Source: a virus
Direction: 5' to 3' (one strand)
UHGV virus genome: UHGV-0094961
Length of the DNA: 38,929 nt
Numbering within the stretch: position 1 is the stretch's first letter; the number at the start of each line of letters is the position of its first letter. The notes beneath the pieces were generated by a model, which ran no database searches, was not told the origin of the DNA, and saw only the letters and a program-made list of their open reading frames with translations. Of the stretch, positions 2,384 through 29,582 are shown piece by piece. The position numbers and the translations under genes were made by a program.

Positions 2384-2524
2384 GTGGTGCCACGGGGTGT
2401 GGTAGAAAGCAGTAGAGCGGGGAGACGAACGCGCCGCTAAAGACTACCTGGAGATGTACAATCTCTGGGTAAGTCGCAATCAGTAGTTAGAAGTACCGGA
2501 CATAACCAAGGAGACTAAGCGCCT

Positions 2525-4993
2525 ATGATTAGCGCCCTGAATACGGTTGTAGTACCAGAGGAAGCACTGGTGAAACGCCAGCTGGAGCTCGAAGAGACCT
2601 ATAAGATTCGCGGAATCGAGCGGGCACGTAAGCTGATTACGGACGCATTGCAGAACGGCGGGATTATGAACCTGCCGATGACGCAGCGTATGCTCACCTC
2701 GGCATATGAGGTGGCTGCTGCCGCTATCGACGAGATGCGAAACGTCAAAGTCCCGGGCATTGGTGGTAAGTACCGCCGGTTCCTGCGCTTAGTCCCCTTG
2801 GATGTCCTGACCACACTGAGCCTGTGCACAATGTTTGAAGCGTTTAGCGTCGCCCCCGGCGAGTCTGCTAGTCGCCGCCAGACTGCGCAGGCGGTAATGT
2901 CCGCACTGGGCCGGAACGTGCAGTCAGAGCTACTGGCTCTGCAGTTACGCAACGTAGCCCCAGCGTACATGGACCGAGTATATGAGTATCTCACAGAGCG
3001 CCGTACGAAGTCCCCTACGCACATCCTGCGTACGCTCCGTGCCAGTGCCGAGAATGTGCACTATGGGCACGAGCCTTGGACCAATGCCCAGAACATCTCC
3101 GTAGGGCGTCTGCTGTGTGCCGCGGTGTTTGAGACTGGCTTGTTCCAGTGGAAGACAGGTAGCGGGAACCTGAGCATGCTCTACCCGGCTGATGACGTTA
3201 TGGGGGCCTTCCAGAAACTGGTGGAATCTGCCGACACTGTAACGATGAAGCCGCCTATGCTGGTCCCCCCGGTGCAGCACACCACTATGTGGGATGGTGG
3301 GTACCTTACTCCTATCGACAACCGCGGTACGTACCATAACTCGCACATCGACCGCTCCAGGCTGCGTGAAGTGGCGGAAGCATTTAAGTCCGCGGATGGC
3401 ATCAAGAAGGCGCTTAATAAGGCACAGGAAACCCCATACCGTATTAATAAGCGCATACTGGAACTGGTGCAAGAAGCACGGGCCCTGGGTATTGGGATAG
3501 GTATGCCCCGCTCAATACCGGAGCCGAAGCCTGAGTGGTACTTGGATGGTGTACCAAAAGAGAACTACACCGAAGAAGAACTGGACCGCTTCGGTGAGTG
3601 GAAGACGCGTATGTCCCTGTGGTACAGTGCTGACCGTAAGCGTGTGTCGCAACTACGCAGCCTTCTGACTACGTTGGAGATGGCAGAGGAATTCAAAGAT
3701 GAGAAAGCCCTGTACTTCCCGACTTGTGTGGACTGGCGCTACCGCCTGTACTTCAAGTCCTCGTTGCACCCGCAGGGTTCTGATTTGCAGAAGGCTCTGC
3801 TGGAATTCGGTAGAGGTAAACCTCTTGGAGAGAGAGGGTTGTTCTGGCTTAAAGTGCATGTCGCCACTTGCTTTGGTTATGACAAAACCCTATTCGAAGA
3901 CCGCGCAGATTGGGTGGATAAAAATATGGCAGTTGTCCGCTCAGTTGCAGAGAATCCATTTGATTCGGACGCTTTTAAGCAGGCCGATTCACCGTGGTGT
4001 TTCTTGGCAGCAGTGCTCGACCTGGTGGCTGCTCTGGATTCTCCGTGCCCAGAAGAGTACATCTCCAGAACTCCGGTTGCTATGGACGCCACAAACTCAG
4101 GTGGACAGCACCTCTCAGCGCTCCTGAGAGACCCTGTAGGCGGTCGTCTGACGAACCTGTACTGGGAAGGTAACGACAAGAAAGCGGACCTGTACATGGA
4201 CGTGAAGCGCCGCACGGATGAGAAGGTGATACTGGACCTGGACAAGGAGGATTTCGTTATCCAGAGCACGTACTGGAGAGAGAACGAAATCACCCGCAGC
4301 ATGACCAAGCACCCAAGTATGACCTACTTCTACAGCGCCACGGTGCGTAGCTGCAGCGACTACATCTTTGAAGGCGCTTGCGCTGAGGGATACGAGGGTA
4401 CCGATACTAACAGTCTGTGGAACCTGTCGTGCTACCTGGCACCGCGTATGCGCGCCGCTATAGAGGAGGCAAACCCCGCTGCTGCGGCAGTTATGGGGTA
4501 CTTGCAGAATCTCGCTAGACGCGTACCGGCAAGCCAGCACCTGCAGTGGTATACGCCGCTGGGCGGGCTCGTAATGAACCGTTACACGCAGCGTGAAGAA
4601 GTGCGTGTACGTATTGACTGCATGAACCTGTCAGCGGTACTGGTACACAACCGGGACTTCAAAACTTGTAACAAGCGCAAGGCAGCCTCCGGGATTGCCC
4701 CAAACTTTGTGCATAGCCTGGACAGTACGCACTTGATGATGGTGCTCTGCGCTGCGGAGGGGTTGGACATTGTGCCTATTCACGACTCGCTGGCTACTCA
4801 CGCAGCTGACGTCGACACTATGCATAGGCACATCCGTGAGCAGTTTGTGCGTCTATATGAAGAGAATGACCTGCTTGGCGATATTACTCGGGCAGCGGCA
4901 GCAGCCGGGGCAGACTTGACGGACCTGGACATGCCAGAGGTGGGCACTTTGGACATCCGGCAAGTGCTAGAATCCCCGTTCTTCTTCTGCTAA
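2525..4993 (+). CDS. single-subunit DNA-directed RNA polymerase (T7-like RNAP)
   Basis: 822 aa; PVAMDATNSGGQHLSALLRD (T7 motif DGSCSGIQHFSAMLRD) and PIHDSLATH (T7 HDSFGT); AAGGAG RBS 11 nt upstream. Confidence 0.9.
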   Translation: MISALNTVVVPEEALVKRQLELEETYKIRGIERARKLITDALQNGGIMNLPMTQRMLTSAYEVAAAAIDEMRNVKVPGIGGKYRRFLRLVPLDVLTTLSLCTMFEAFSVAPGESASRRQTAQAVMSALGRNVQSELLALQLRNVAPAYMDRVYEYLTERRTKSPTHILRTLRASAENVHYGHEPWTNAQNISVGRLLCAAVFETGLFQWKTGSGNLSMLYPADDVMGAFQKLVESADTVTMKPPMLVPPVQHTTMWDGGYLTPIDNRGTYHNSHIDRSRLREVAEAFKSADGIKKALNKAQETPYRINKRILELVQEARALGIGIGMPRSIPEPKPEWYLDGVPKENYTEEELDRFGEWKTRMSLWYSADRKRVSQLRSLLTTLEMAEEFKDEKALYFPTCVDWRYRLYFKSSLHPQGSDLQKALLEFGRGKPLGERGLFWLKVHVATCFGYDKTLFEDRADWVDKNMAVVRSVAENPFDSDAFKQADSPWCFLAAVLDLVAALDSPCPEEYISRTPVAMDATNSGGQHLSALLRDPVGGRLTNLYWEGNDKKADLYMDVKRRTDEKVILDLDKEDFVIQSTYWRENEITRSMTKHPSMTYFYSATVRSCSDYIFEGACAEGYEGTDTNSLWNLSCYLAPRMRAAIEEANPAAAAVMGYLQNLARRVPASQHLQWYTPLGGLVMNRYTQREEVRVRIDCMNLSAVLVHNRDFKTCNKRKAASGIAPNFVHSLDSTHLMMVLCAAEGLDIVPIHDSLATHAADVDTMHRHIREQFVRLYEENDLLGDITRAAAAAGADLTDLDMPEVGTLDIRQVLESPFFFC

Positions 4994-20906: not shown

Positions 20907-21209
20907 ATGGCAGGGGCAGCTAAACGCAGTCGCCTCTCGGAGCTGCACCGTATGTTCACCGAGGCCTTGCTTGAAGAAATCAAGCAGTCTAAGGAAGATG
21001 AGGTGCCGCTCCCCGCAGCAGATAAATCGGTCATTGCTAAGTTCTTGAAGGATAACGACATCACCGCGGACGCAGATTCCGAGGAGATGCAGGACCTTCG
21101 TGACGAATTCGATGACGAGCTAGTGGCGCGCAGAGAGGCGCGTAAGCAAGAGATTCTAAATAAAGTTGGTGGTTCAGACTCTGAGGACTTACTAGAAGGA
21201 ATTGTCTAA
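20907..21209 (+). CDS. terminase small subunit (DNA maturase A-like)
   Basis: 100 aa acidic protein immediately upstream of, and start/stop-overlapping with, the large terminase gene. Confidence 0.55.
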   Translation: MAGAAKRSRLSELHRMFTEALLEEIKQSKEDEVPLPAADKSVIAKFLKDNDITADADSEEMQDLRDEFDDELVARREARKQEILNKVGGSDSEDLLEGIV

Positions 21210-23065
21210 TGGTATCGGTGAAGACTGCGCGAAGACTGCGCATGCTCAACCAGAAACTTACTGGTTATAGTGCGAATCCGCGCAGTATTCCCAAAGAGGA
21301 GCGCGAGGATATCGCGGTGATGATGGCCGCGGCACTAAGCGACTTCCGGGAATTCGCGTACATCGGTATGCGGTTCCTGGGCTTTACGCTCACGGACATG
21401 CAGGCCGACATTGCAGAGTACATGCAGAAGGGCCCCCGGAAGCGCATGGTGGCCGCGCAGCGTGGTGAGGCTAAGTCTACACTAGCTGCACTGTACGCCG
21501 TCTGGAGGCTCATCCAGGACCAATCCTGCCGTATCCTGATTGTGTCCGGTGCAGAGAAGCAGGCGTCCGACGTAGCGAACTTAATCATTCGTATGATTGA
21601 GACATGGCCGCTGCTGTGCTATTTGAAGGCTGATCCTACTCGTGGGGACCGTACTTCATTCGAAGGTTATGACGTACACTGTGACCTTAAGCCGCTGGAG
21701 AAATCCGCCAGCGTAGCCTGTGTAGGTATCACTGCATCCCTGCAGGGTAAGCGCGCGGACCTGCTGATTCCGGATGATATCGAGACCACCAAGAATGGTT
21801 TAACGCAAACCCAGCGTGAGCAGCTGCTGATGATTTCTAAAGACTTCGCGGCTATCTGTACGCACGGGGATACGCTGTACCTGGGTACACCACAGACCAA
21901 GGACAGTATCTATAAAACCCTGCCGGGACGTGGCTTCGAGGTCCGCGTGTGGCCCGGGCGCGTTCCGTCTGTTGAAATGGAAGAGCGATATGGAAGTACA
22001 CTTGCTCCTTATATCCTGGAGCTTATTGAGCGCGGCTATAAACGCACCGGCTTCGGAGTCGACGGGACGCTAGGCGAGAGCACGGACACCGGGCGCTATG
22101 ACGAGGATGCGCTGATTGAGAAGGAGCTGGACTTTGGTCCGGAAGGCTTCCAGCTGCAGTACATGCTCGACACCACCCTGTCCGACCAAATGCGTACGCG
22201 CATCAAGCTATCGGATGTGCTGGTTTACTCTGGCAGCCAGGATTCCTCCCCGGAGACGTTCTCCTACATCGCGGACCGCCGGTATCTGTACCAGCACGAG
22301 CATGAAGGGATTATGGGCCAGCAGATGTACTTCCCGGCATTCTACGGGGATATGCACCTTCCGTACCAGCATAAGGTACTGGTAGTGGACCCGGCTGGTT
22401 GTGGTGGGGACGAAGTGTCCTACGCTGCTGGAGGCGCTGCGAACTCGTACATTCACCTATTCTCCGTAGGCGGATTCCAAGGAGGTATCAGCGAAGAGAA
22501 CATTGATAAACTGATTGACCTGTGTGTAGAGTTGGACATCCCGGATATGGTGGTGGAGAGCAATATGGGGCACGGTACCGTGTCTATGCTTATCCTGAAC
22601 CGATTACGTGAGCGGCGTCTCGCCGGTATCGGTGTAAGGGACCTGAATAACTGCACGCAGAAAGAGCGTCGTATCATCGACACAATCAGCCCAGTTACTC
22701 GTCGCCATCGCCTGGTAGTGCATGAGCGTGCTATTCACGACGATATCAGTACCTGTATGGCATATTCCCGCGATAGGCGTTGGCTGTACTCTGCGTTCGC
22801 GCAGTTGTCCGGTATCACGTACGACCGCGGTAGCCTTGCGAAGGATGACCGGGCAGACGCAATCGCCATGATGGTGGCTACGCTGAATGGGCATCTGGTG
22901 GAAGATGAGAAAGTGGTGGCGGAGCGTGAGTCTGAGAAGATGGCTCGGGCCTTCATTGAGAACCCACTGGATTGGGCACAGAGCAAAGTGTCTAAGGGCT
23001 TTCGTGGTGTAGCTGCTCGGCTACATAACCGGGGCAGAGGTAAACAACATAGAGGAAGAAGATAA
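21209..23065 (+). CDS. terminase large subunit
   Basis: 618 aa ORF at the T7 gp19 position; size and position consistent, nuclease and ATPase motifs not verified by eye. Confidence 0.8.
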   Translation: MVSVKTARRLRMLNQKLTGYSANPRSIPKEEREDIAVMMAAALSDFREFAYIGMRFLGFTLTDMQADIAEYMQKGPRKRMVAAQRGEAKSTLAALYAVWRLIQDQSCRILIVSGAEKQASDVANLIIRMIETWPLLCYLKADPTRGDRTSFEGYDVHCDLKPLEKSASVACVGITASLQGKRADLLIPDDIETTKNGLTQTQREQLLMISKDFAAICTHGDTLYLGTPQTKDSIYKTLPGRGFEVRVWPGRVPSVEMEERYGSTLAPYILELIERGYKRTGFGVDGTLGESTDTGRYDEDALIEKELDFGPEGFQLQYMLDTTLSDQMRTRIKLSDVLVYSGSQDSSPETFSYIADRRYLYQHEHEGIMGQQMYFPAFYGDMHLPYQHKVLVVDPAGCGGDEVSYAAGGAANSYIHLFSVGGFQGGISEENIDKLIDLCVELDIPDMVVESNMGHGTVSMLILNRLRERRLAGIGVRDLNNCTQKERRIIDTISPVTRRHRLVVHERAIHDDISTCMAYSRDRRWLYSAFAQLSGITYDRGSLAKDDRADAIAMMVATLNGHLVEDEKVVAERESEKMARAFIENPLDWAQSKVSKGFRGVAARLHNRGRGKQHRGRR

Positions 23066-23439
23066 TGGCATCAATCATCGCAGCTAAAACTGCGGACGTC
23101 CAGTACGCCATTGTGGGCACGTGCCAGAACCTGGAGAAGCAGGTGCAGCCGGACTACAACGTAGGCTTCGTAGGTACGACTGCCCTGACTAAGCTGAACG
23201 CGTTCTTCACGTACATGCAGTCCCAGGGCTATACGGCTACCCGTGCCGGTACAGCCTTTAAGGATGACGGTACGCTGCAGGCGCGCCTGTTCAGCATGCT
23301 GTCACAGCTCTCTAAGACCGGCTACGTTGCCCCTACAGGTACAGGTATGCCGCTCGGTGAGGGCTCCGGTACAGCGTTTGATGATTCGTTCACTGCACTG
23401 CAGAGTGCATTCGTAGCCGCCACTGATGCGGCAGAATAA
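23065..23439 (+). CDS. hypothetical protein
   Basis: 124 aa ORF, ATG overlapping terminase stop, AGAGGAAGAAG RBS. Confidence 0.45.
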   Translation: MASIIAAKTADVQYAIVGTCQNLEKQVQPDYNVGFVGTTALTKLNAFFTYMQSQGYTATRAGTAFKDDGTLQARLFSMLSQLSKTGYVAPTGTGMPLGEGSGTAFDDSFTALQSAFVAATDAAE

Positions 23440-23450
23440 GGAGAGTACAC

Positions 23451-23633
23451 ATGGCAATTGCAAAAGCAACCTCAGCGCAACAGCAGGAGCTGTTGCGTCA
23501 GCTGAACATTCTCGGTAAGGACCTGTATGCTATCCTTACGCAGCCGCAGAACGTGGCCCAGACTGGTGCTGCCTTCGATACCAAGATTGCTGCGCTTGAA
23601 GCCGCGGTGGCCGCAGTGAAGGCTGCTAGCTAA
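23451..23633 (+). CDS. hypothetical small protein
   Basis: 60 aa; TAAGGAG RBS; Ala-rich helical-looking. Confidence 0.4.
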   Translation: MAIAKATSAQQQELLRQLNILGKDLYAILTQPQNVAQTGAAFDTKIAALEAAVAAVKAAS

Positions 23634-24037
23634 TGCGTAAACTGGTCGCTGGGTTGCTGCTCGCGGTTACTCTGACTGGTTGCTCGGCGACCTCTGCACT
23701 CACCGGATTAGTTGGTTCTAAGCCGGATGTATCTGCTCAGGTTGGTGCCGAGAACACCAAACAAACCGTTGGCTTGAATAACAAGGTGGACTCCAGCACC
23801 ACCAACAAAACTGATGTACAGGATTCTAACGTAGGCACTTTGGACACGTCCAGTAAGAAGCAGGTGCAAACTATTAGCACCGGGACAATCCAGGCAGAAC
23901 GCCTGCAGGTGGTTAACAATGATAGTTACAGTCTTATCCTCGCCGGATTAGCTGGGGCCAGCATTCCTCTGGTCTTCCTAGTGGTCATTCTGGTGATTCG
24001 TAAGCTGTTCAGGAAGAAGGGGCAGCAGGATGATTAA
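23633..24037 (+). CDS. lipoprotein with C-terminal transmembrane segment; candidate unimolecular spanin
   Basis: N-terminal signal with lipobox LTGC (MRKLVAGLLLAVTLTGC), polar Thr/Ser/Asn-rich middle, C-terminal TMD SLILAGLAGASIPLVFLVVILVI followed by RKLFRKK; adjacent to holin and endolysin. Confidence 0.5.
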   Translation: MRKLVAGLLLAVTLTGCSATSALTGLVGSKPDVSAQVGAENTKQTVGLNNKVDSSTTNKTDVQDSNVGTLDTSSKKQVQTISTGTIQAERLQVVNNDSYSLILAGLAGASIPLVFLVVILVIRKLFRKKGQQDD

Positions 24038-24281
24038 GGTGGGAGACATGGTTGGAGCAGACCTCGCTACCCGGGCAGGTGCAGCAGTTACCGGTGCTAC
24101 GGTATCAGGAGGTTGGTTGGCAGAGTTAATGAGCTGGAACTGGAGCACTATCAGCTTCATCACTGCGACTGTGTGCGCAGTGCTAACCCTGGCGTGGAAT
24201 GCGTATTACAAGCGACGTACATTCAAGCTCCTAGAAGAGCAGGCGCGTAAGGGGACTATTAAATATGAGTTTAAGGACTAA
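24030..24281 (+). CDS. holin, pinholin-like (start possibly ATG 24048)
   Basis: Small protein with a Gly/Ala-rich weakly hydrophobic first segment and a second TMD (WSTISFITATVCAVLTLAW), charged C-terminus; AAGGTGGGAG RBS before ATG 24048; immediately upstream of SAR endolysin. Confidence 0.55.
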   Translation: MIKVGDMVGADLATRAGAAVTGATVSGGWLAELMSWNWSTISFITATVCAVLTLAWNAYYKRRTFKLLEEQARKGTIKYEFKD

Positions 24282-24873
24282 GGTTATTGCGGCCCTCACG
24301 GGGGCCACTATGCTGGGTGGTGCTATTACTGGGGTGGTTCAGCACAACGAGGGATTGAGCCTTACCGCCTATAAGGATAGTGCCGGTGTCCCTACAATCT
24401 GCTACGGGGAGACAAAGGGCGTCAAGATGGGCCAGAGAGCCACGCTGAGCGATTGTCAGAAGCAACTGATAGAATCAGCAGGGGCACATGCAAAGGCCCT
24501 TGACGGGCTTCCTATGCAGCTCTCTGACGTAGCTCTGGTTGGGTCTGTAGACTTCATTTATAACGTAGGCGTAGCTGGCTTCAACGGCAGTGCTGTGAAG
24601 CGGCACCTCAAAAGCCTGAATTACGCAGAAGCTGGAAAGGCCGTACTGGACTGGCGCTATATTAGCAAGTATCAGCAGAAATCCCCGGGCATCGGTTGGG
24701 TGTACAAGGGCAGCAACCGCTGGACCTTCGACTGCTCTCAGTATATTAACGGGCAGCGCAATAAAGTGTGCTGGGGCCTATGGGAGCGCAGACAGTGGCA
24801 GAGCAAGGCCGTTGGGAATCAGTATAAGAATGTAAATGCTGCAGTGGCAGCTCTTACTAAGACCGGAGGATAA
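24265..24873 (+). CDS. endolysin, GH24 lysozyme with N-terminal SAR (signal-arrest-release) domain
   Basis: NEGLSLTAYKDSAGVPTICYGE aligns with T4-lysozyme catalytic region (E...D...T); N-terminal VIAALTGATMLGGAITGVV is a Gly/Ala-rich hydrophobic segment like P21/phiKMV SAR endolysins. Confidence 0.8.
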   Translation: MSLRTKVIAALTGATMLGGAITGVVQHNEGLSLTAYKDSAGVPTICYGETKGVKMGQRATLSDCQKQLIESAGAHAKALDGLPMQLSDVALVGSVDFIYNVGVAGFNGSAVKRHLKSLNYAEAGKAVLDWRYISKYQQKSPGIGWVYKGSNRWTFDCSQYINGQRNKVCWGLWERRQWQSKAVGNQYKNVNAAVAALTKTGG

Positions 24874-26829
24874 ATGGCGTTAATTAGATTAGTAGCTCCA
24901 GAGCGGGTATTCTCCGACTTGGCGAGCATGGTAGCATATCCAAACTTTCAGGTACGGGACAAGATTAGCCTGCTGGGCAGCGCCGGTGGGGACTTCACCT
25001 TTACTACTGCCGCGTCGGTAGTGGATAACGGAACTGTGTTTGCTGTACCTGGTGGGTATCTACTCCGTAAATTCGTGGGTCCGGCATACAGCTCCTGGTT
25101 CAGCAATTGGGCGGGCATAGTAACGTTCATGAGCGCACCTAATAGGCACCTGGTTGTGGACACGGTCCTGCAGGCCACGAGTGTGCTCAACATCAAAAGC
25201 AACTCTACGCTAGAGTTTACCGATACCGGAAGAATCCTACCGGATGCTGCGGTTGCACGTCAAGTGCTTAATATTATCGGCTCGGCACCCTCGGTGTTCG
25301 TACCGTTAGCAGCGGATGCCGCGGCGGGCAGCAAAGTCATTACGGTGGCTGCCGGGGCTTTGTCTGCGGTAAAAGGTACGTACTTGTATCTTCGCTCTAA
25401 CAAGCTGTGTGATGGTGGTCCTAACACGTACGGTGTAAAGATTTCCCAGATTAGGAAAGTGGTTGGGGTTAGCACCTCCGGTGGCGTCACCAGTATTCGG
25501 CTGGATAAAGCGCTGCACTATAACTACTACCTGTCTGATGCCGCGGAAGTAGGTATCCCGACAATGGTGGAGAACGTAACCTTAGTATCCCCGTACATCA
25601 ACGAGTTCGGCTACGACGATTTGAACCGGTTCTTTACTATCGGTATCTCTGCCAACTTTGCCGCGGACTTGCACATCCAGGACGGGGTTATTATTGGCAA
25701 CAAACGCCCCGGGGCTTCTGATATAGAAGGGCGTAGTGCTATCAAGTTCAATAACTGCGTAGATAGTACTGTTAAGGGTACGTACTTCTACAACATCGGA
25801 TGGTATGGGGTAGAAGTGCTCGGCTGCTCAGAGGACACGGAAGTACACGATATCCACGCCATGGACGTACGCCACGCAATCTCTCTGAACTGGCAGAGCA
25901 CCGCAGACGGGGACAAGTGGGGAGAGCCTATCGAGTTCTTAGGCGTTAACTGCGAAGCCTACAACACAACCCAAGCTGGGTTTGATACTCATGACATTGG
26001 TAAGCGTGTGAAGTTCGTTCGATGCGTTTCGTACGACAGTGCTGACGATGGGTTCCAAGCGCGCACTAACGGGGTAGAGTACTTGAACTGTCGAGCTTAC
26101 CGTGCAGCTATGGACGGGTTCGCCTCCAACACCGGTGTAGCCTTCCCTATCTATAGGGAGTGCCTAGCTTATGACAACGTACGCTCTGGCTTTAACTGCT
26201 CGTACGGCGGTGGCTACGTTTATGACTGCGAGGCTCACGGTAGCCAGAATGGTGTGCGAATCAACGGGGGCCGTGTTAAGGGTGGTCGGTACACCCGCAA
26301 CTCCAGCTCTCACATCTTCGTTACTAAGGACGTAGCTGAGACAGCGCAGACATCCCTGGAGATTGATGGCGTGAGCATGCGCTACGACGGTACCGGGAGA
26401 GCTGTGTACTTCCACGGGACTATGGGCATTGACCCTACCCTGGTATCTATGTCCAATAACGACATGACCGGTCACGGCTTGTTCTGGGCATTGCTGAGCG
26501 GCTACGCCGTTCAACCTACGCCCCCGCGCATGTCCATGAACTTACTGGATGACACGGGTATCCGTGGAGTGGCAACCCTGGTGGCTGGTGAGGCTACAGT
26601 CAACGCCCGTGTACGCGGAAACTTTGGCAGCGTAGCTAACTCCTTCAAGTGGGTGTCTGAGGTTAAGTTGACGCGGTTGACCTTTCCCTCTAGTGCTGGG
26701 GCCTTGACGGTTACTGGCGTAGCTCAGAACCAGGATGTGCCTACACCTAATCCGGACCTAAACAGCTTCGTGATTAGGAGCAGTAACGCAGCGGACGTAT
26801 CCCAGGTAGCCTGGGAGGTGTATCTCTAA
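24874..26829 (+). CDS. tailspike protein, probable right-handed beta-helix (candidate polysaccharide depolymerase)
   Basis: 651 aa; repeated short beta-strand-like segments rich in G/N/V/T/D (NCVDSTVKGTYFYNIGWYGVEV, FVRCVSYDSADDGF, LNCRAYRAAMDGF) suggest parallel beta-helix; lacks T7 gp17 N-terminal anchor; last late gene. Confidence 0.6.
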   Translation: MALIRLVAPERVFSDLASMVAYPNFQVRDKISLLGSAGGDFTFTTAASVVDNGTVFAVPGGYLLRKFVGPAYSSWFSNWAGIVTFMSAPNRHLVVDTVLQATSVLNIKSNSTLEFTDTGRILPDAAVARQVLNIIGSAPSVFVPLAADAAAGSKVITVAAGALSAVKGTYLYLRSNKLCDGGPNTYGVKISQIRKVVGVSTSGGVTSIRLDKALHYNYYLSDAAEVGIPTMVENVTLVSPYINEFGYDDLNRFFTIGISANFAADLHIQDGVIIGNKRPGASDIEGRSAIKFNNCVDSTVKGTYFYNIGWYGVEVLGCSEDTEVHDIHAMDVRHAISLNWQSTADGDKWGEPIEFLGVNCEAYNTTQAGFDTHDIGKRVKFVRCVSYDSADDGFQARTNGVEYLNCRAYRAAMDGFASNTGVAFPIYRECLAYDNVRSGFNCSYGGGYVYDCEAHGSQNGVRINGGRVKGGRYTRNSSSHIFVTKDVAETAQTSLEIDGVSMRYDGTGRAVYFHGTMGIDPTLVSMSNNDMTGHGLFWALLSGYAVQPTPPRMSMNLLDDTGIRGVATLVAGEATVNARVRGNFGSVANSFKWVSEVKLTRLTFPSSAGALTVTGVAQNQDVPTPNPDLNSFVIRSSNAADVSQVAWEVYL

Positions 26830-27126
26830 GTAGCTCTAGAGCTTCCCTGGGGTATCTCTACGGTATCCCGGGGCACTGCTGGGGTGCTGCTGGGGTGCGC
26901 GTCTATACCTGGACCTGAAATTTATTAGACTCACGCGAGCCCCTCCCTCACCCTCAACGCGCCCAATTGCCCCCATAGGGGGGTGCCTAGCGTCAATTTA
27001 GGGGGGGGGGCACTGGTGGGGCCTGCTAGTGCGCACTAGAGCGCCTCAGCGGGCCTGTGCTGCGCTCTAAGGCTATTGCCAGTGCTACCCTATGGCTATC
27101 ACTGTGCGTTCACTAGGGCGCTTCCT

Positions 27127-27151
27127 GTGCGCTCTCTGTGCGCTCTCTGTG
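27127..27151. repeat. tandem direct repeat GTGCGCTCTCT x2.3
   Basis: Direct reading of sequence. Confidence 0.8.
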
Positions 27152-27384
27152 GGCCATAGGGGCGTGCTCTGCCTTGCTTATTTTGTGCGCCTCAGTGGGT
27201 CTGCCTAGTGCCTGTCTAGTGCCCGCGCAGTGGGGCCATAGGGTATGCCTGGTGCTATCCCGAGTGTGCACTAGGCTATCCACTGGCTATCCTTAGTGCT
27301 TTACATTGTGCTAATTATGTGCTACGCTGCGCGCTCCCCACTAGGGCGCACATCCACCACACCGCACTATCCAGCGCTATCCCT

Positions 27385-27414
27385 TTGCTCTTACTTTCAT
27401 TCGAAAGCTATTAT
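27385..27414 (+). promoter_or_regulatory. candidate sigma70-type promoter (TTGCTC-18-TATTAT)
   Basis: -35-like and -10-like hexamers with 18-bp spacer in the non-coding left-end region; host-RNAP early promoters are expected here. Confidence 0.3.
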
Positions 27415-27418
27415 GAAA

Positions 27419-27437
27419 TGATGTTACAGGAGTAGGA
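27419..27437 (+). promoter_or_regulatory. conserved motif TGATGTTACAGGAGTAGGA (copy 3), candidate phage-RNAP promoter near genome left end
   Basis: Same 17-nt core in the non-coding terminal region; no start codon follows. Confidence 0.35.
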
Positions 27438-27705
27438 GGGTTTTAGGGCACTATATACACTACTTAATACTAGTCCTTACTAGTCCCTACTAGGCACTCA
27501 CTAGTATGGCCCTGTGCCTACGTAGTAGGCTGCCATAACTACATAGTCACCGCATCACTACGTTCCTTCACTTACGTTACGTCACTACGTTCTGCTTTAT
27601 GTAGTATTAGATAGTATTGGCTAGACGTGGCTAGTATTGGCTACAGCCAGTGTCAGCACAGTGCTATCCCTAGTGGCTATCCCTATAATATATAAGGAGT
27701 TATAC

Positions 27706-28260
27706 ATGTTACCATCTAGTCGGGCTACGGCTAAAGCCACTGGTAGTACATACTACTACACAGGGAAGCACTGTAAGTACCAGCACACGGCAAAGCGCCT
27801 CACCAGTTCAGGGGAGTGCTCCGAGTGCTTTAAGATTAGGAGTACCAGCCCAGCTACTAAGGAGCGTATGCGGGGGTACCATAAGGTTTATCAGGTACGT
27901 AAGGCAGAGGCCTTGAGAGAGTACCGTAAGACACGCCGACCTAAGCACATTATGACAGAGGAGCAATTACAGCGTAAGGTTCGCCACAATGCGCGATACC
28001 GTGCTGCGCGTACTCAATCCGTACCCTCATGGTATGGCGAGTGGGGTGAGTTTGTTATGTTGGAGGCTATCGCTTTAGCAGCCGAGAGGGCGGAGTGTAC
28101 TGGCATAGCGTGGCATATTGACCATATGCTACCGCTAAAGGCTAAAGAGGTGTGCGGCTTACACTGTGCGGGGAACATTCAGGTGATACCCGCAACGCTT
28201 AATACACATAAGTGTAACAGGCTGCTATTCACGGAGCCGTTGGGGTGGCTAAAGGCATAA
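27706..28260 (+). CDS. HNH endonuclease with N-terminal Cys-rich motif
   Basis: Start set at ATG 27706 (AAGGAG RBS 6 nt upstream) inside track ORF 27637..28260; C-terminal WHIDHMLPL...GLHCAGNIQVIPATLNTHKCN is an HNH-type motif; N-terminal YYYTGKHCKYQH...GECSECF looks like a zinc-binding motif. Confidence 0.6.
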   Translation: MLPSSRATAKATGSTYYYTGKHCKYQHTAKRLTSSGECSECFKIRSTSPATKERMRGYHKVYQVRKAEALREYRKTRRPKHIMTEEQLQRKVRHNARYRAARTQSVPSWYGEWGEFVMLEAIALAAERAECTGIAWHIDHMLPLKAKEVCGLHCAGNIQVIPATLNTHKCNRLLFTEPLGWLKA

Positions 28261-28266
28261 ACTTGA

Positions 28267-28309
28267 GGTAATACAGTACTATAAATGCTGTATTACCTTT
28301 TTTTTTTTT
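28267..28309 (+). terminator. rho-independent terminator
   Basis: Perfect 10-bp stem GGTAATACAG / CTGTATTACC with 11-nt loop followed by 12 T, directly after the HNH stop codon. Confidence 0.75.
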
Positions 28310-28446
28310 ATAAAAAGTGCTTGCTTTTTTAAATCTGCTAGGTGTATATTTATCCCATCGAAAGCGATACGGTCTACCGGGTAGCTCTAGATTCCAGAGT
28401 CAACTGGATAAGTAGACAGCCTGATAAGTCATATGAAAAACAGGTA

Positions 28447-28475
28447 TTGACAATAGCAGTAAACGCTTTTATAGT
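28447..28475 (+). promoter_or_regulatory. near-consensus sigma70 promoter (TTGACA-17-TATAGT)
   Basis: Consensus -35, 17-bp spacer, -10 with one mismatch to TATAAT; in ORF-poor early region. Confidence 0.45.
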
Positions 28476-28724
28476 TTGAACCATGTTGCGGAGCAGTGTA
28501 GCGCCTAAAGGTGCTCTGACCACTAACCCTAGATACATGATAGTAGTAAGCGTGCCGGACGTTATCACCGGGGTTCTGAGACAAACCACACTGTCGAGGC
28601 GAGAGCAGCTCGCTCCTCTGAATCGAGGGAACAAGGCGCGGAGTGTATCCCGCAAAGAGCATATAACATAGCGTAGCAGTAACAAGGCTGCGCTAGATTA
28701 TGTTCTCTGAGAGGTAAGAAGATT

Positions 28725-28922
28725 ATGCGCAAAGCAAAGCGTTTAGCTTTACGGCGGAATATGCAGTTATCACTGAATCCCACCGACAACGTGCCACTCA
28801 CTGTGAAGCCAAGTAAACAAGGCCTGAGCTGTGAGCACAGGGTGAGAGGTAAGCAAAAGCAACGTGCTGGCAGTAAACAACCTTCGGGGTGGTCTACTAT
28901 GAATGCACAGTTCGGACACTAA
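28725..28922 (+). CDS. hypothetical small basic protein
   Basis: 65 aa, Lys/Arg-rich; GAGAGGTAAGAAG upstream of ATG; only RBS-supported ORF in the island. Confidence 0.3.
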   Translation: MRKAKRLALRRNMQLSLNPTDNVPLTVKPSKQGLSCEHRVRGKQKQRAGSKQPSGWSTMNAQFGH

Positions 28923-28927
28923 TTACA

Positions 28928-28959
28928 GCCTATAGCATCCTATGGGGTGCTATGTGAAG
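28928..28959 (+). promoter_or_regulatory. conserved hairpin motif copy A (GCCTATAGCATCC-TATG-GGGTGCTATGTGAAG)
   Basis: 9-bp stem (one G-U wobble) with 4-nt loop, followed by GTGAA; 39 nt upstream of ATG 28998; covaries with copy B. Confidence 0.4.
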
Positions 28960-28997
28960 TAATTCGTAAAGTAAACAACCAATCAAAGGGGTGCATT

Positions 28998-29582
28998 ATG
29001 ACTAATTCCACCAATTCAACAGGTAAAGTATTCAAGCTCACCGCTGCTGGCAGCATTCGTAAAGCGCTGGGCGACGTAGTGGAAGCAAAGCGTAACATCA
29101 CTATCAGCGCGCTCTTCCACGGCCTGATTAGCAGCAACGTATCATGGGCTACGGATATGCAGCGTAGCGATGCCGCTGACTTCGATATGGTGCTGCGTAC
29201 GCTGTTGCCTATCAAGCTCAACAAGGAGTCCGGCAAATATGGGTTCAACGCTAAGAAGTGCTATGTGTCGGCTGAAAAGCTGGGTATCGAACTGGACACT
29301 ATGCGTCTGGACTACAAACAAGCTGACAAGCAAGGCCGCGAAGTAATCGTAGCGAGGTTTTATAGCTCCTGTATGGCCCTGTACGCCGCCGAAGCAGAGC
29401 AGGTGAAGAATGACGCACTGGATGCCGATGCAGTGCGCCTGCAAGCGCTGGGGCGCGTTAAAAACGCTATTAAGAAGGCTAAAGAGACTGGCGTAAGCGA
29501 TGCTGACCTCGTGTCTATGCTGGTATCGCAAGGCGTGGACGTACGCGCTGTACTGGACGCAACTTTGAAGGCAGCGGCATGA
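28998..29582 (+). CDS. hypothetical early protein
   Basis: Start at ATG 28998 (AAAGGGG RBS) within track ORF 28947..29582; 194 aa; no recognisable motif. Confidence 0.5.
   Translation: MTNSTNSTGKVFKLTAAGSIRKALGDVVEAKRNITISALFHGLISSNVSWATDMQRSDAADFDMVLRTLLPIKLNKESGKYGFNAKKCYVSAEKLGIELDTMRLDYKQADKQGREVIVARFYSSCMALYAAEAEQVKNDALDADAVRLQALGRVKNAIKKAKETGVSDADLVSMLVSQGVDVRAVLDATLKAAA

Follow-up and report, generated by a model that had tools for sequence, protein, structure and literature searches.

The virus genome UHGV-0094961 was analysed over a stretch of 38,929 nucleotides, in the following termed the window (38.9 kb of a genome of about 44 kb), with regard to three overlapping genes on its plus strand. 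These encode proteins of 134, 83 and 202 amino acids (aa) that are described here as a lysis cassette consisting of a predicted unimolecular spanin (u-spanin), a holin of putative pinholin type and an endolysin with an N-terminus of the signal-arrest-release (SAR) type. All three open reading frames (ORFs) were recovered from the list of plus-strand ORFs between 22.5 and 26.5 kb exactly where a preliminary description of this DNA had placed them (Table 1). The genes are tightly packed. The ATG of the spanin gene shares one base with the stop codon of an upstream 60-aa ORF (TAATG), the start of the holin gene overlaps the spanin stop by 8 nucleotides (ATGATTAA), the start of the endolysin gene overlaps the holin gene by 17 nucleotides and the endolysin stop codon is directly followed by a 651-aa ORF. 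Upstream of the u-spanin gene lie the large terminase gene (21209-23065) and, following it, a 124-aa ORF and the 60-aa ORF already mentioned. Chance ORFs are not at issue, because the three proteins match PHROG 1804 ("Rz-like spanin", 6e-52), PHROG 20 ("holin", 5e-17) and an endolysin PHROG (6e-35), respectively, and because the cassette region is 90-98% identical at the DNA level in more than 200 phage genomes.

A megablast search with positions 23000-25000 matched 250 phage records, 234 of them from Klebsiella phages. The top records, i.e., BUCT-H1, BUCT631, KpV41 and the RCIP series, were 95-98% identical across the whole query, and the taxonomic assignment of KpV41 is Autographiviridae; Slopekvirinae; Drulisvirus. 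On the basis of this identity to annotated Drulisvirus genomes, the window is assigned to a KP34-like (Drulisvirus) Klebsiella podophage of the T7 supergroup. In GenBank records of related Drulisvirus members, the three genes carry the labels "U-spanin" or "Rz-like spanin", "holin" and "endolysin". With a probability of roughly 0.9 we regard them as the late-gene lysis cassette of such a phage, homologous gene for gene to the pinholin, SAR endolysin and spanin system of phages T1 and 21 and distinguished by having the spanin gene in first place. The sequence features and homologies stem from the present analysis; the mechanism is taken from the literature on T1 gp11, R21 and S21. In the light of the homologies, the annotated relatives and the publications, the preliminary description, a pinholin plus SAR endolysin with a preceding u-spanin, is essentially right. 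The cassette is already known: its gene order and the predicted roles of its products were published in 2015 (PMC4411677) and are also present in database annotation.

Table 1. Genes and protein features of the lysis cassette, with positions in the window. KD, Kyte-Doolittle hydropathy; KD19, Kyte-Doolittle mean over 19 residues, for which at least 1.5 is the usual membrane-helix threshold; TMD, transmembrane domain.
Feature	Position	Strand	Basis
u-spanin gene (predicted), 134 aa, T1 gp11 family	23633..24037	+	ORF list; PHROG 1804; T1 gp11 identity; GenBank labels
Lipoprotein signal peptide ending in LTGC	23633..23683 (LTGC, 23672-23683)	+	Pfam LPAM_1; lipobox scan
Most conserved periplasmic motif PDVSAQVGAENTKQ, residues 31-44 of the u-spanin	23723..23764	+	P31 and A35-Q44 invariant in T1 and four Autographiviridae homologues
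Transmembrane helix at the C-terminus of the u-spanin (L101-I122), then basic cytoplasmic tail RKLFRKKGQQDD	23933..23998	+	KD19 maximum 2.66; AF2 helix 97-129
Holin gene, 83 aa, phage 21 S-like, putative pinholin	24030..24281	+	Pfam PF04971; PHROG 20; similarity to S21 and T1 gp13
Weakly hydrophobic Gly/Ala/Thr-rich segment A16-M34 of the holin, candidate SAR-like TMD1	24075..24131	+	KD 0.98; 63% G/A/S/T
Strong transmembrane helix ~W38-A58 of the holin, followed by basic C-terminal tail	24141..24203	+	KD19 peak 1.55; aligns with S21 TMD2
Endolysin gene, 202 aa, GH24 lysozyme with SAR-type N-terminus	24265..24873	+	Pfam PF00959; PDB 3HDE; T1 gp12
Putative signal-arrest-release segment V7-V25 of the endolysin, preceded by R4 and K6	24283..24339	+	KD 1.82; 58% G/A/S/T; aligns with R21 SAR segment
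Catalytic motif E29-x8-D38-x5-T44 of the endolysin	24349..24396	+	Regular-expression match; aligns with EG...KD...T of R21

The 134-aa protein begins with MRKLVAGLLLAVTLTGC, in which the lipobox LTGC occupies residues 14-17, and is recognized by Pfam LPAM_1 with 20.3 bits versus a cut-off of 20. Besides the signal peptide, L101-I122, with RKLFRKK directly following, is the only hydrophobic stretch, such that the N-terminal lipobox and the single C-terminal TMD that had been claimed for this protein were both confirmed. Lipoproteins lacking Asp at position +2 are sorted to the outer membrane (Asp+2 rule), and since it is Ser18 that stands at +2 after Cys17, outer-membrane sorting is predicted. 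Cys17 is at the same time the sole cysteine of the protein; its periplasmic part is free of this residue, as are the periplasmic parts of 58 out of 58 u-spanins surveyed by Kongari et al. (2018; PMC6139136).

With the product of T1 gene 11 (NC_005833), the 134-aa protein shares 42% identity over 125 of its 134 residues (E 3e-26), and the alignment runs from the lipobox to the C-terminal helix. Kongari et al. (2018) assign proteins to the T1 gp11 family when identity is at least 40% over at least 40% of the length, a range into which these values fall, and KP34, F19 and NTUH-K2044-K1-1 are among the 28 family members given in their Table 5 (PMC6139136). T1 gp11 itself is reported to complement a lambda Rz/Rz1 defect (PMC6139136). 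Judged by this similarity and by the orthologues already placed in the family, the 134-aa protein is a T1 gp11 homologue and a predicted u-spanin, just as its architecture had suggested in the preliminary description. When the proteins from T1, PP16, Kc261, EhYP and TPH09 were aligned with it, the L-x-G-C-S lipobox region and the motif AQVGAENTKQ proved invariant, L14, G16, C17 and S18 being identical across all six homologues, and the C-terminal TMD is conserved as well. A tblastn search retrieved homologues in 1,167 phage records, mostly of T1-like siphophages of Klebsiella and Escherichia and of Pectobacterium podophages.

Structural information on the u-spanin is limited to a single-sequence AF2 model with a mean pLDDT of 57.5, in which only the two membrane helices appear with any confidence; it contains a helix at residues 97-129 and, as sole periplasmic helix, a short one at 34-40, while residues 41-96 have no assigned structure (pLDDT ~47-53). 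The periplasmic domain of T1 gp11-type u-spanins is predicted to consist mainly of beta-strands and to be devoid of coiled coils. A PDB sequence search with the u-spanin gave no match and hence no solved homologue. NCBIfam returned a match of residues 8-80 to "spanin2_3" ("bacteriophage spanin2", NF037952) with 22 bits versus a cut-off of 80, which is far sub-threshold and concerns a stretch that begins in the signal peptide; it was not accepted as evidence of homology. Similarity between u-spanins and o-spanins was not detectable for Kongari et al. (2018; PMC6139136).

The 83-aa protein matches Pfam family PF04971 (Phage_holin_2_1, phage 21 holin S) with 26.6 bits at a gathering score of 26 and may thus be placed, marginally, in the phage 21 S (pinholin) family. 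The sequence of S21 was confirmed in the phage 21 record OL657228, where it is annotated as antiholin / class II holin. It shares 31% identity with the 83-aa holin over 35 aa (E 4e-5) in a region that takes in the last part of TMD1 and the whole of TMD2; identity to T1 gp13 amounts to 34%, likewise over 35 aa. With respect to the proposal of a pinholin with two TMDs, S21-family membership found support, but the two-TMD architecture was not seen directly, as a single segment (~W38-A58) surpasses a KD19 of 1.5. The TMD1 stretch of S21 has a KD of 0.21 and thereby scores below the holin segment A16-M34 (0.98), and the hydropathy profiles of the two proteins have the same shape. For orthologous holins, one TMD has been predicted (PMC4411677, PMC10194101). 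A second helix would follow from homology to S21 and is not visible in hydropathy. A dual-start holin/antiholin motif was also considered. Both M1 and M7 are present, M7 with the better Shine-Dalgarno sequence; the motif was rejected as a conserved feature because M7 is replaced by Val in the homologues from TPH09 and EhYP. The MIK/MIR start is conserved.

Pfam PF00959 (Phage_lysozyme) matches the 202-aa protein at 1.1e-20, and identity to T1 gp12 is 30%. The best PDB match is 3HDE, the full-length R21 endolysin of phage 21 (E 2.3e-9, residues 2-137). Because this alignment begins at residue 2, the N-terminal segment can be considered homologous to the SAR segment of R21. The GH24 region and the Gly/Ala-rich SAR-type N-terminus noted earlier were thereby substantiated, and the 202-aa protein is, by homology, a GH24 enzyme with an R21-like SAR-type N-terminus, for which release from the membrane is predicted. 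As the SAR segment does not contain cysteine, a disulfide switch of the P1 Lyz type is not expected, and regulation would likely occur via an R21-type refolding switch instead of P1 Lyz-type disulfide caging.

Several points weigh against the assignment as a T1/phage 21-type cassette. Membership of the holin in the S21 family is marginal, hydropathy as well as the published predictions give this protein one TMD, and the label "pinholin" is owed mostly to the SAR-type endolysin with which this protein is paired. The beta-rich periplasmic domain characteristic of the u-spanin family was not confirmed by the low-confidence AF2 model, and a literature search found no experimental test of any component of a KP34-like cassette, whose functions are assigned by homology. 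Furthermore, the endolysin N-terminus could also represent a signal peptide cleaved at GGA|I, and signal-peptide calls have been reported for the orthologous endolysin (PMC10194101). These observations lead to an alternative in which the endolysin is secreted via Sec and cleaved by signal peptidase, i.e., is not of the SAR type, and in which the 83-aa protein is a holin with one TMD (class III-like) responsible for timing/depolarisation only. An n-region, a short h-region and the small residues G18-G19-A20, which comply with the -3/-1 rule, agree with such a reading, as do the prediction of one transmembrane helix for the holin alongside the signal peptides (PMC10194101) and the single holin TMD called by others (PMC4411677). 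On the other hand, the N-terminal segment can be aligned both with the SAR segment of R21, a structurally characterised SAR endolysin, and with T1 gp12, and it has the Gly/Ala/Thr richness typical of SAR domains. SAR domains are, moreover, commonly called as signal peptides by signal-peptide predictors. We therefore consider a cleaved endolysin unlikely and retain the SAR endolysin.

The second question concerns the identity of the spanin. Lipoprotein genes were sought in six frames and from every start codon on the basis of a basic n-region, a hydrophobic h-region and a lipobox, and the gene for the 134-aa protein emerged as the only plausible lipobox ORF in the window. On the plus strand of the 38.9 kb, the search covered all frames and start codons and found no second one. 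Inside 23633-24037, the ORF list contains no embedded plus-strand ORF of at least 30 aa, and a hydropathy scan of all plus-strand ORFs of the window revealed no protein in which an N-terminal TMD is followed by a periplasmic domain, as would be expected for an i-spanin. The earlier view that a u-spanin is present rather than an Rz/Rz1 pair consequently holds within the window, and the check for an embedded Rz1-like lipoprotein ORF proposed along with it gave nothing credible in six frames; absence from the remainder of the genome rests on published complete-genome analyses (PMC4411677). One other lipobox-like match (35084-34878, minus strand) lies antisense inside a plus-strand gene and is not credible as a signal peptide. 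Database labels nevertheless suggest a two-component spanin, with the 60-aa ORF (23451-23633) as Rz-like i-spanin and the 134-aa lipoprotein as Rz1-like o-spanin: in Klebsiella phage KPPK108.1 the orthologues are named "putative lysis Rz protein" and "putative lysis Rz1 protein", an upstream ORF of PP16 is termed "putative Rz-like lysis protein", and the 60-aa and 134-aa ORFs are translationally coupled. This arrangement is highly improbable, given that neither the 60-aa nor the 124-aa protein possesses a hydrophobic segment (no KD19 of at least 1.5), so that neither can be an integral inner-membrane i-spanin, that neither matches any spanin family, and that the 134-aa protein has a C-terminal TMD of its own and end-to-end homology to T1 gp11. 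The KPPK108.1 label "Rz" for the 60-aa ORF was rejected because this ORF encodes no TMD. Small lipoproteins for superinfection exclusion or receptor blocking, such as Cor and Llp, exist in T1/T5-type phages, and the 134-aa lipoprotein could in principle be one of these and adjoin the holin gene by chance, all the more as no experimental test was found for the KP34-like genus. Such a role is the least probable of all: the identity to T1 gp11, a protein with reported complementation of lambda Rz/Rz1 (PMC6139136), extends across both membrane anchors, the C-terminal TMD is conserved, the gene is part of a late operon in which it overlaps with that of the holin, and the window contains no other spanin.

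If the three proteins act as u-spanin, pinholin and SAR endolysin, lysis could proceed in the following way, the holin and endolysin steps being those established for S21 and R21. The 202-aa GH24 endolysin would be exported by Sec and remain tethered in inactive form in the inner membrane through its weakly hydrophobic N-terminal segment, while the 83-aa S21-like holin would build up in the same membrane until timed triggering collapses the proton-motive force. Depolarisation would then free the N-terminal segment of the endolysin, upon which the enzyme would refold to its active form, as in R21, and degrade the murein. The 134-aa u-spanin is envisaged as lipid-anchored in the outer membrane at Cys17 and attached to the inner membrane through its C-terminal helix, with a periplasmic domain of ~83 residues threaded through the murein; this mature periplasmic part would probably need to be largely extended in order to bridge the envelope. 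Once the murein is gone, the spanins would cluster and collapse, inner and outer membranes would fuse and virions would be released. For T1 gp11, accumulation as a periplasm-spanning molecule that is restrained by murein and then brings about fusion of the inner with the outer membrane has been proposed (PMC6139136; Kongari et al. 2018, J Virol, as summarized in PMC9636201). The spanin mechanism assumed for the KP34-like genus is derived entirely from T1 gp11.

With regard to gene order, the position of the spanin gene in front of the holin gene had been called unusual. This is correct in comparison with T1, lambda and phiKMV, but the order is documented and conserved in KP34-like phages (PMC4411677) and in Phimunavirus (PMC6115819). 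Eriksson et al. (2015) described a "spanin-holin-endolysin" succession with u-spanin, pinholin and SAR endolysin, and the spanin-first order was one of the arguments for creating the KP34-like genus (PMC4411677); an identical order was described for Phimunavirus by Buttimer et al. (2018; PMC6115819). PP16 (Corkvirinae) and Kc261 (Bonnellvirus) exhibit the same order, preceded by one or two small ORFs and, before these, by the large terminase gene.

Members of the genus Drulisvirus (KP34 / Kp34likevirus; PMC4411677) resemble the window in all three genes and their order as well as in the location of the cassette after the large terminase and before the tailspike gene. Many of them are 90-98% identical to it at the DNA level, with 97-100% at the protein level, and the cassettes do not differ in substance; only the downstream tailspike differs, which in the window is of the K1-capsule lyase type. 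Phage T1 (gp13/gp12/gp11), source of the prototype u-spanin (Summer et al. 2007; Kongari et al. 2018), has the same protein architectures, with identities of 42% for the spanin, 30% for the endolysin and 34% for the holin over its C-terminal half. In T1, however, the order is holin-endolysin-spanin, whereas the spanin comes first in the window, the endolysin of the window is 40 residues longer at the C-terminus than T1 gp12, and T1 is a siphophage (Drexlerviridae) in contrast to the T7-supergroup podophage studied here. Phage 21 is related through the holin, which reaches the threshold of the S21 Pfam family, and through the endolysin, whose closest solved structure is full-length R21 including the SAR segment. 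It differs by a two-component Rz/Rz1 spanin in place of the u-spanin; in addition, the dual-start (antiholin) motif of S21 is not conserved in the holin of the window and the similarity to S21 is weak. Phage phiKMV (pinholin KMV44, SAR endolysin KMV45, Rz, Rz1; Briers et al. 2011) belongs to the same phage supergroup and shares the post-terminase position and the pinholin/SAR logic, but its spanin consists of two components encoded downstream of the endolysin. The cassettes of phiKMV and KP34 display ~30% similarity over 22% coverage (PMC4411677).

In Kosakonia virus Kc261 (positions 2441-3817), the u-spanin homologue is 34% identical to that of the window and is followed by a 127-aa protein with its sole hydrophobic segment near the C-terminus and then by a 178-aa protein without similarity to the GH24 endolysin of the window. 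This constellation suggests that holin and endolysin are exchanged as modules while the spanin is conserved, and it agrees with the literature, according to which u-spanins can operate with both types of lysis (PMC6139136). In the related Klebsiella phage vB_VIPKPNTPH09, an additional 121-aa hypothetical ORF (1127-1492) is located between the u-spanin and holin genes, and the overlap is lost. The T1-type module of pinholin, SAR endolysin and u-spanin occurs both in siphophages of the Drexlerviridae and in T7-like podophages of several subfamilies, and the order of its genes can change. Sharing and reordering of the module agree with published surveys, and the importance of the present case extends little beyond correct annotation: some GenBank records carry wrong or incomplete labels such as "Rz/Rz1" or "hypothetical protein".

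The two small, conserved plus-strand ORFs between the large terminase and u-spanin genes, of 124 aa (23065-23439) and 60 aa (23451-23633), match PHROG 7128 (2e-80) and PHROG 7375 (4e-39), respectively; for neither of them was a Pfam or NCBIfam match or a TMD found. The 60-aa ORF is rich in Ala and Gln, helical and translationally coupled to the u-spanin. PP16 and Kc261 contain ORFs of similar size and Ala-rich composition at the corresponding position. That the two ORFs encode extra lysis-associated factors, e.g., cytoplasmic regulators of holin or spanin timing, is a decidedly speculative idea to which we attach little credence; if it were true, the overlapping spanin-first arrangement would represent a coupled expression unit absent from T1.

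Scans for sigma-70 promoters and terminators around the cassette yielded counts no higher than in shuffled sequence, and no tRNA genes were found. The 651-aa ORF after the endolysin gene (24874-26829, plus strand) encodes a tailspike or depolymerase. It carries the Pfam domains K1-lyase_N (7e-39), Rider (6e-38) and C (2e-16) of a K1 capsule-specific polysaccharide lyase together with a beta-helix. Because of these three K1-lyase domains, the phage probably targets Klebsiella of capsule type K1. It is followed by ~0.8 kb (26830-27640) without a long plus-strand ORF, which includes a run of ~10 G, many CACTAG / CTAGTG-like motifs and a tandem GTGCGCTCTCT(G) repeat near 27128-27150. By coordinate offset, the right terminal direct repeat annotated in KpV41 maps to ~26936-27149 of the window, and this location inside the window points to a circularly permuted assembly with a collapsed terminal repeat, in which the window continues past the genome end into the early region. 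G+C content is lowest at 28001-29000, in the presumed early-gene region, with 0.465 versus ~0.54 elsewhere in the window.

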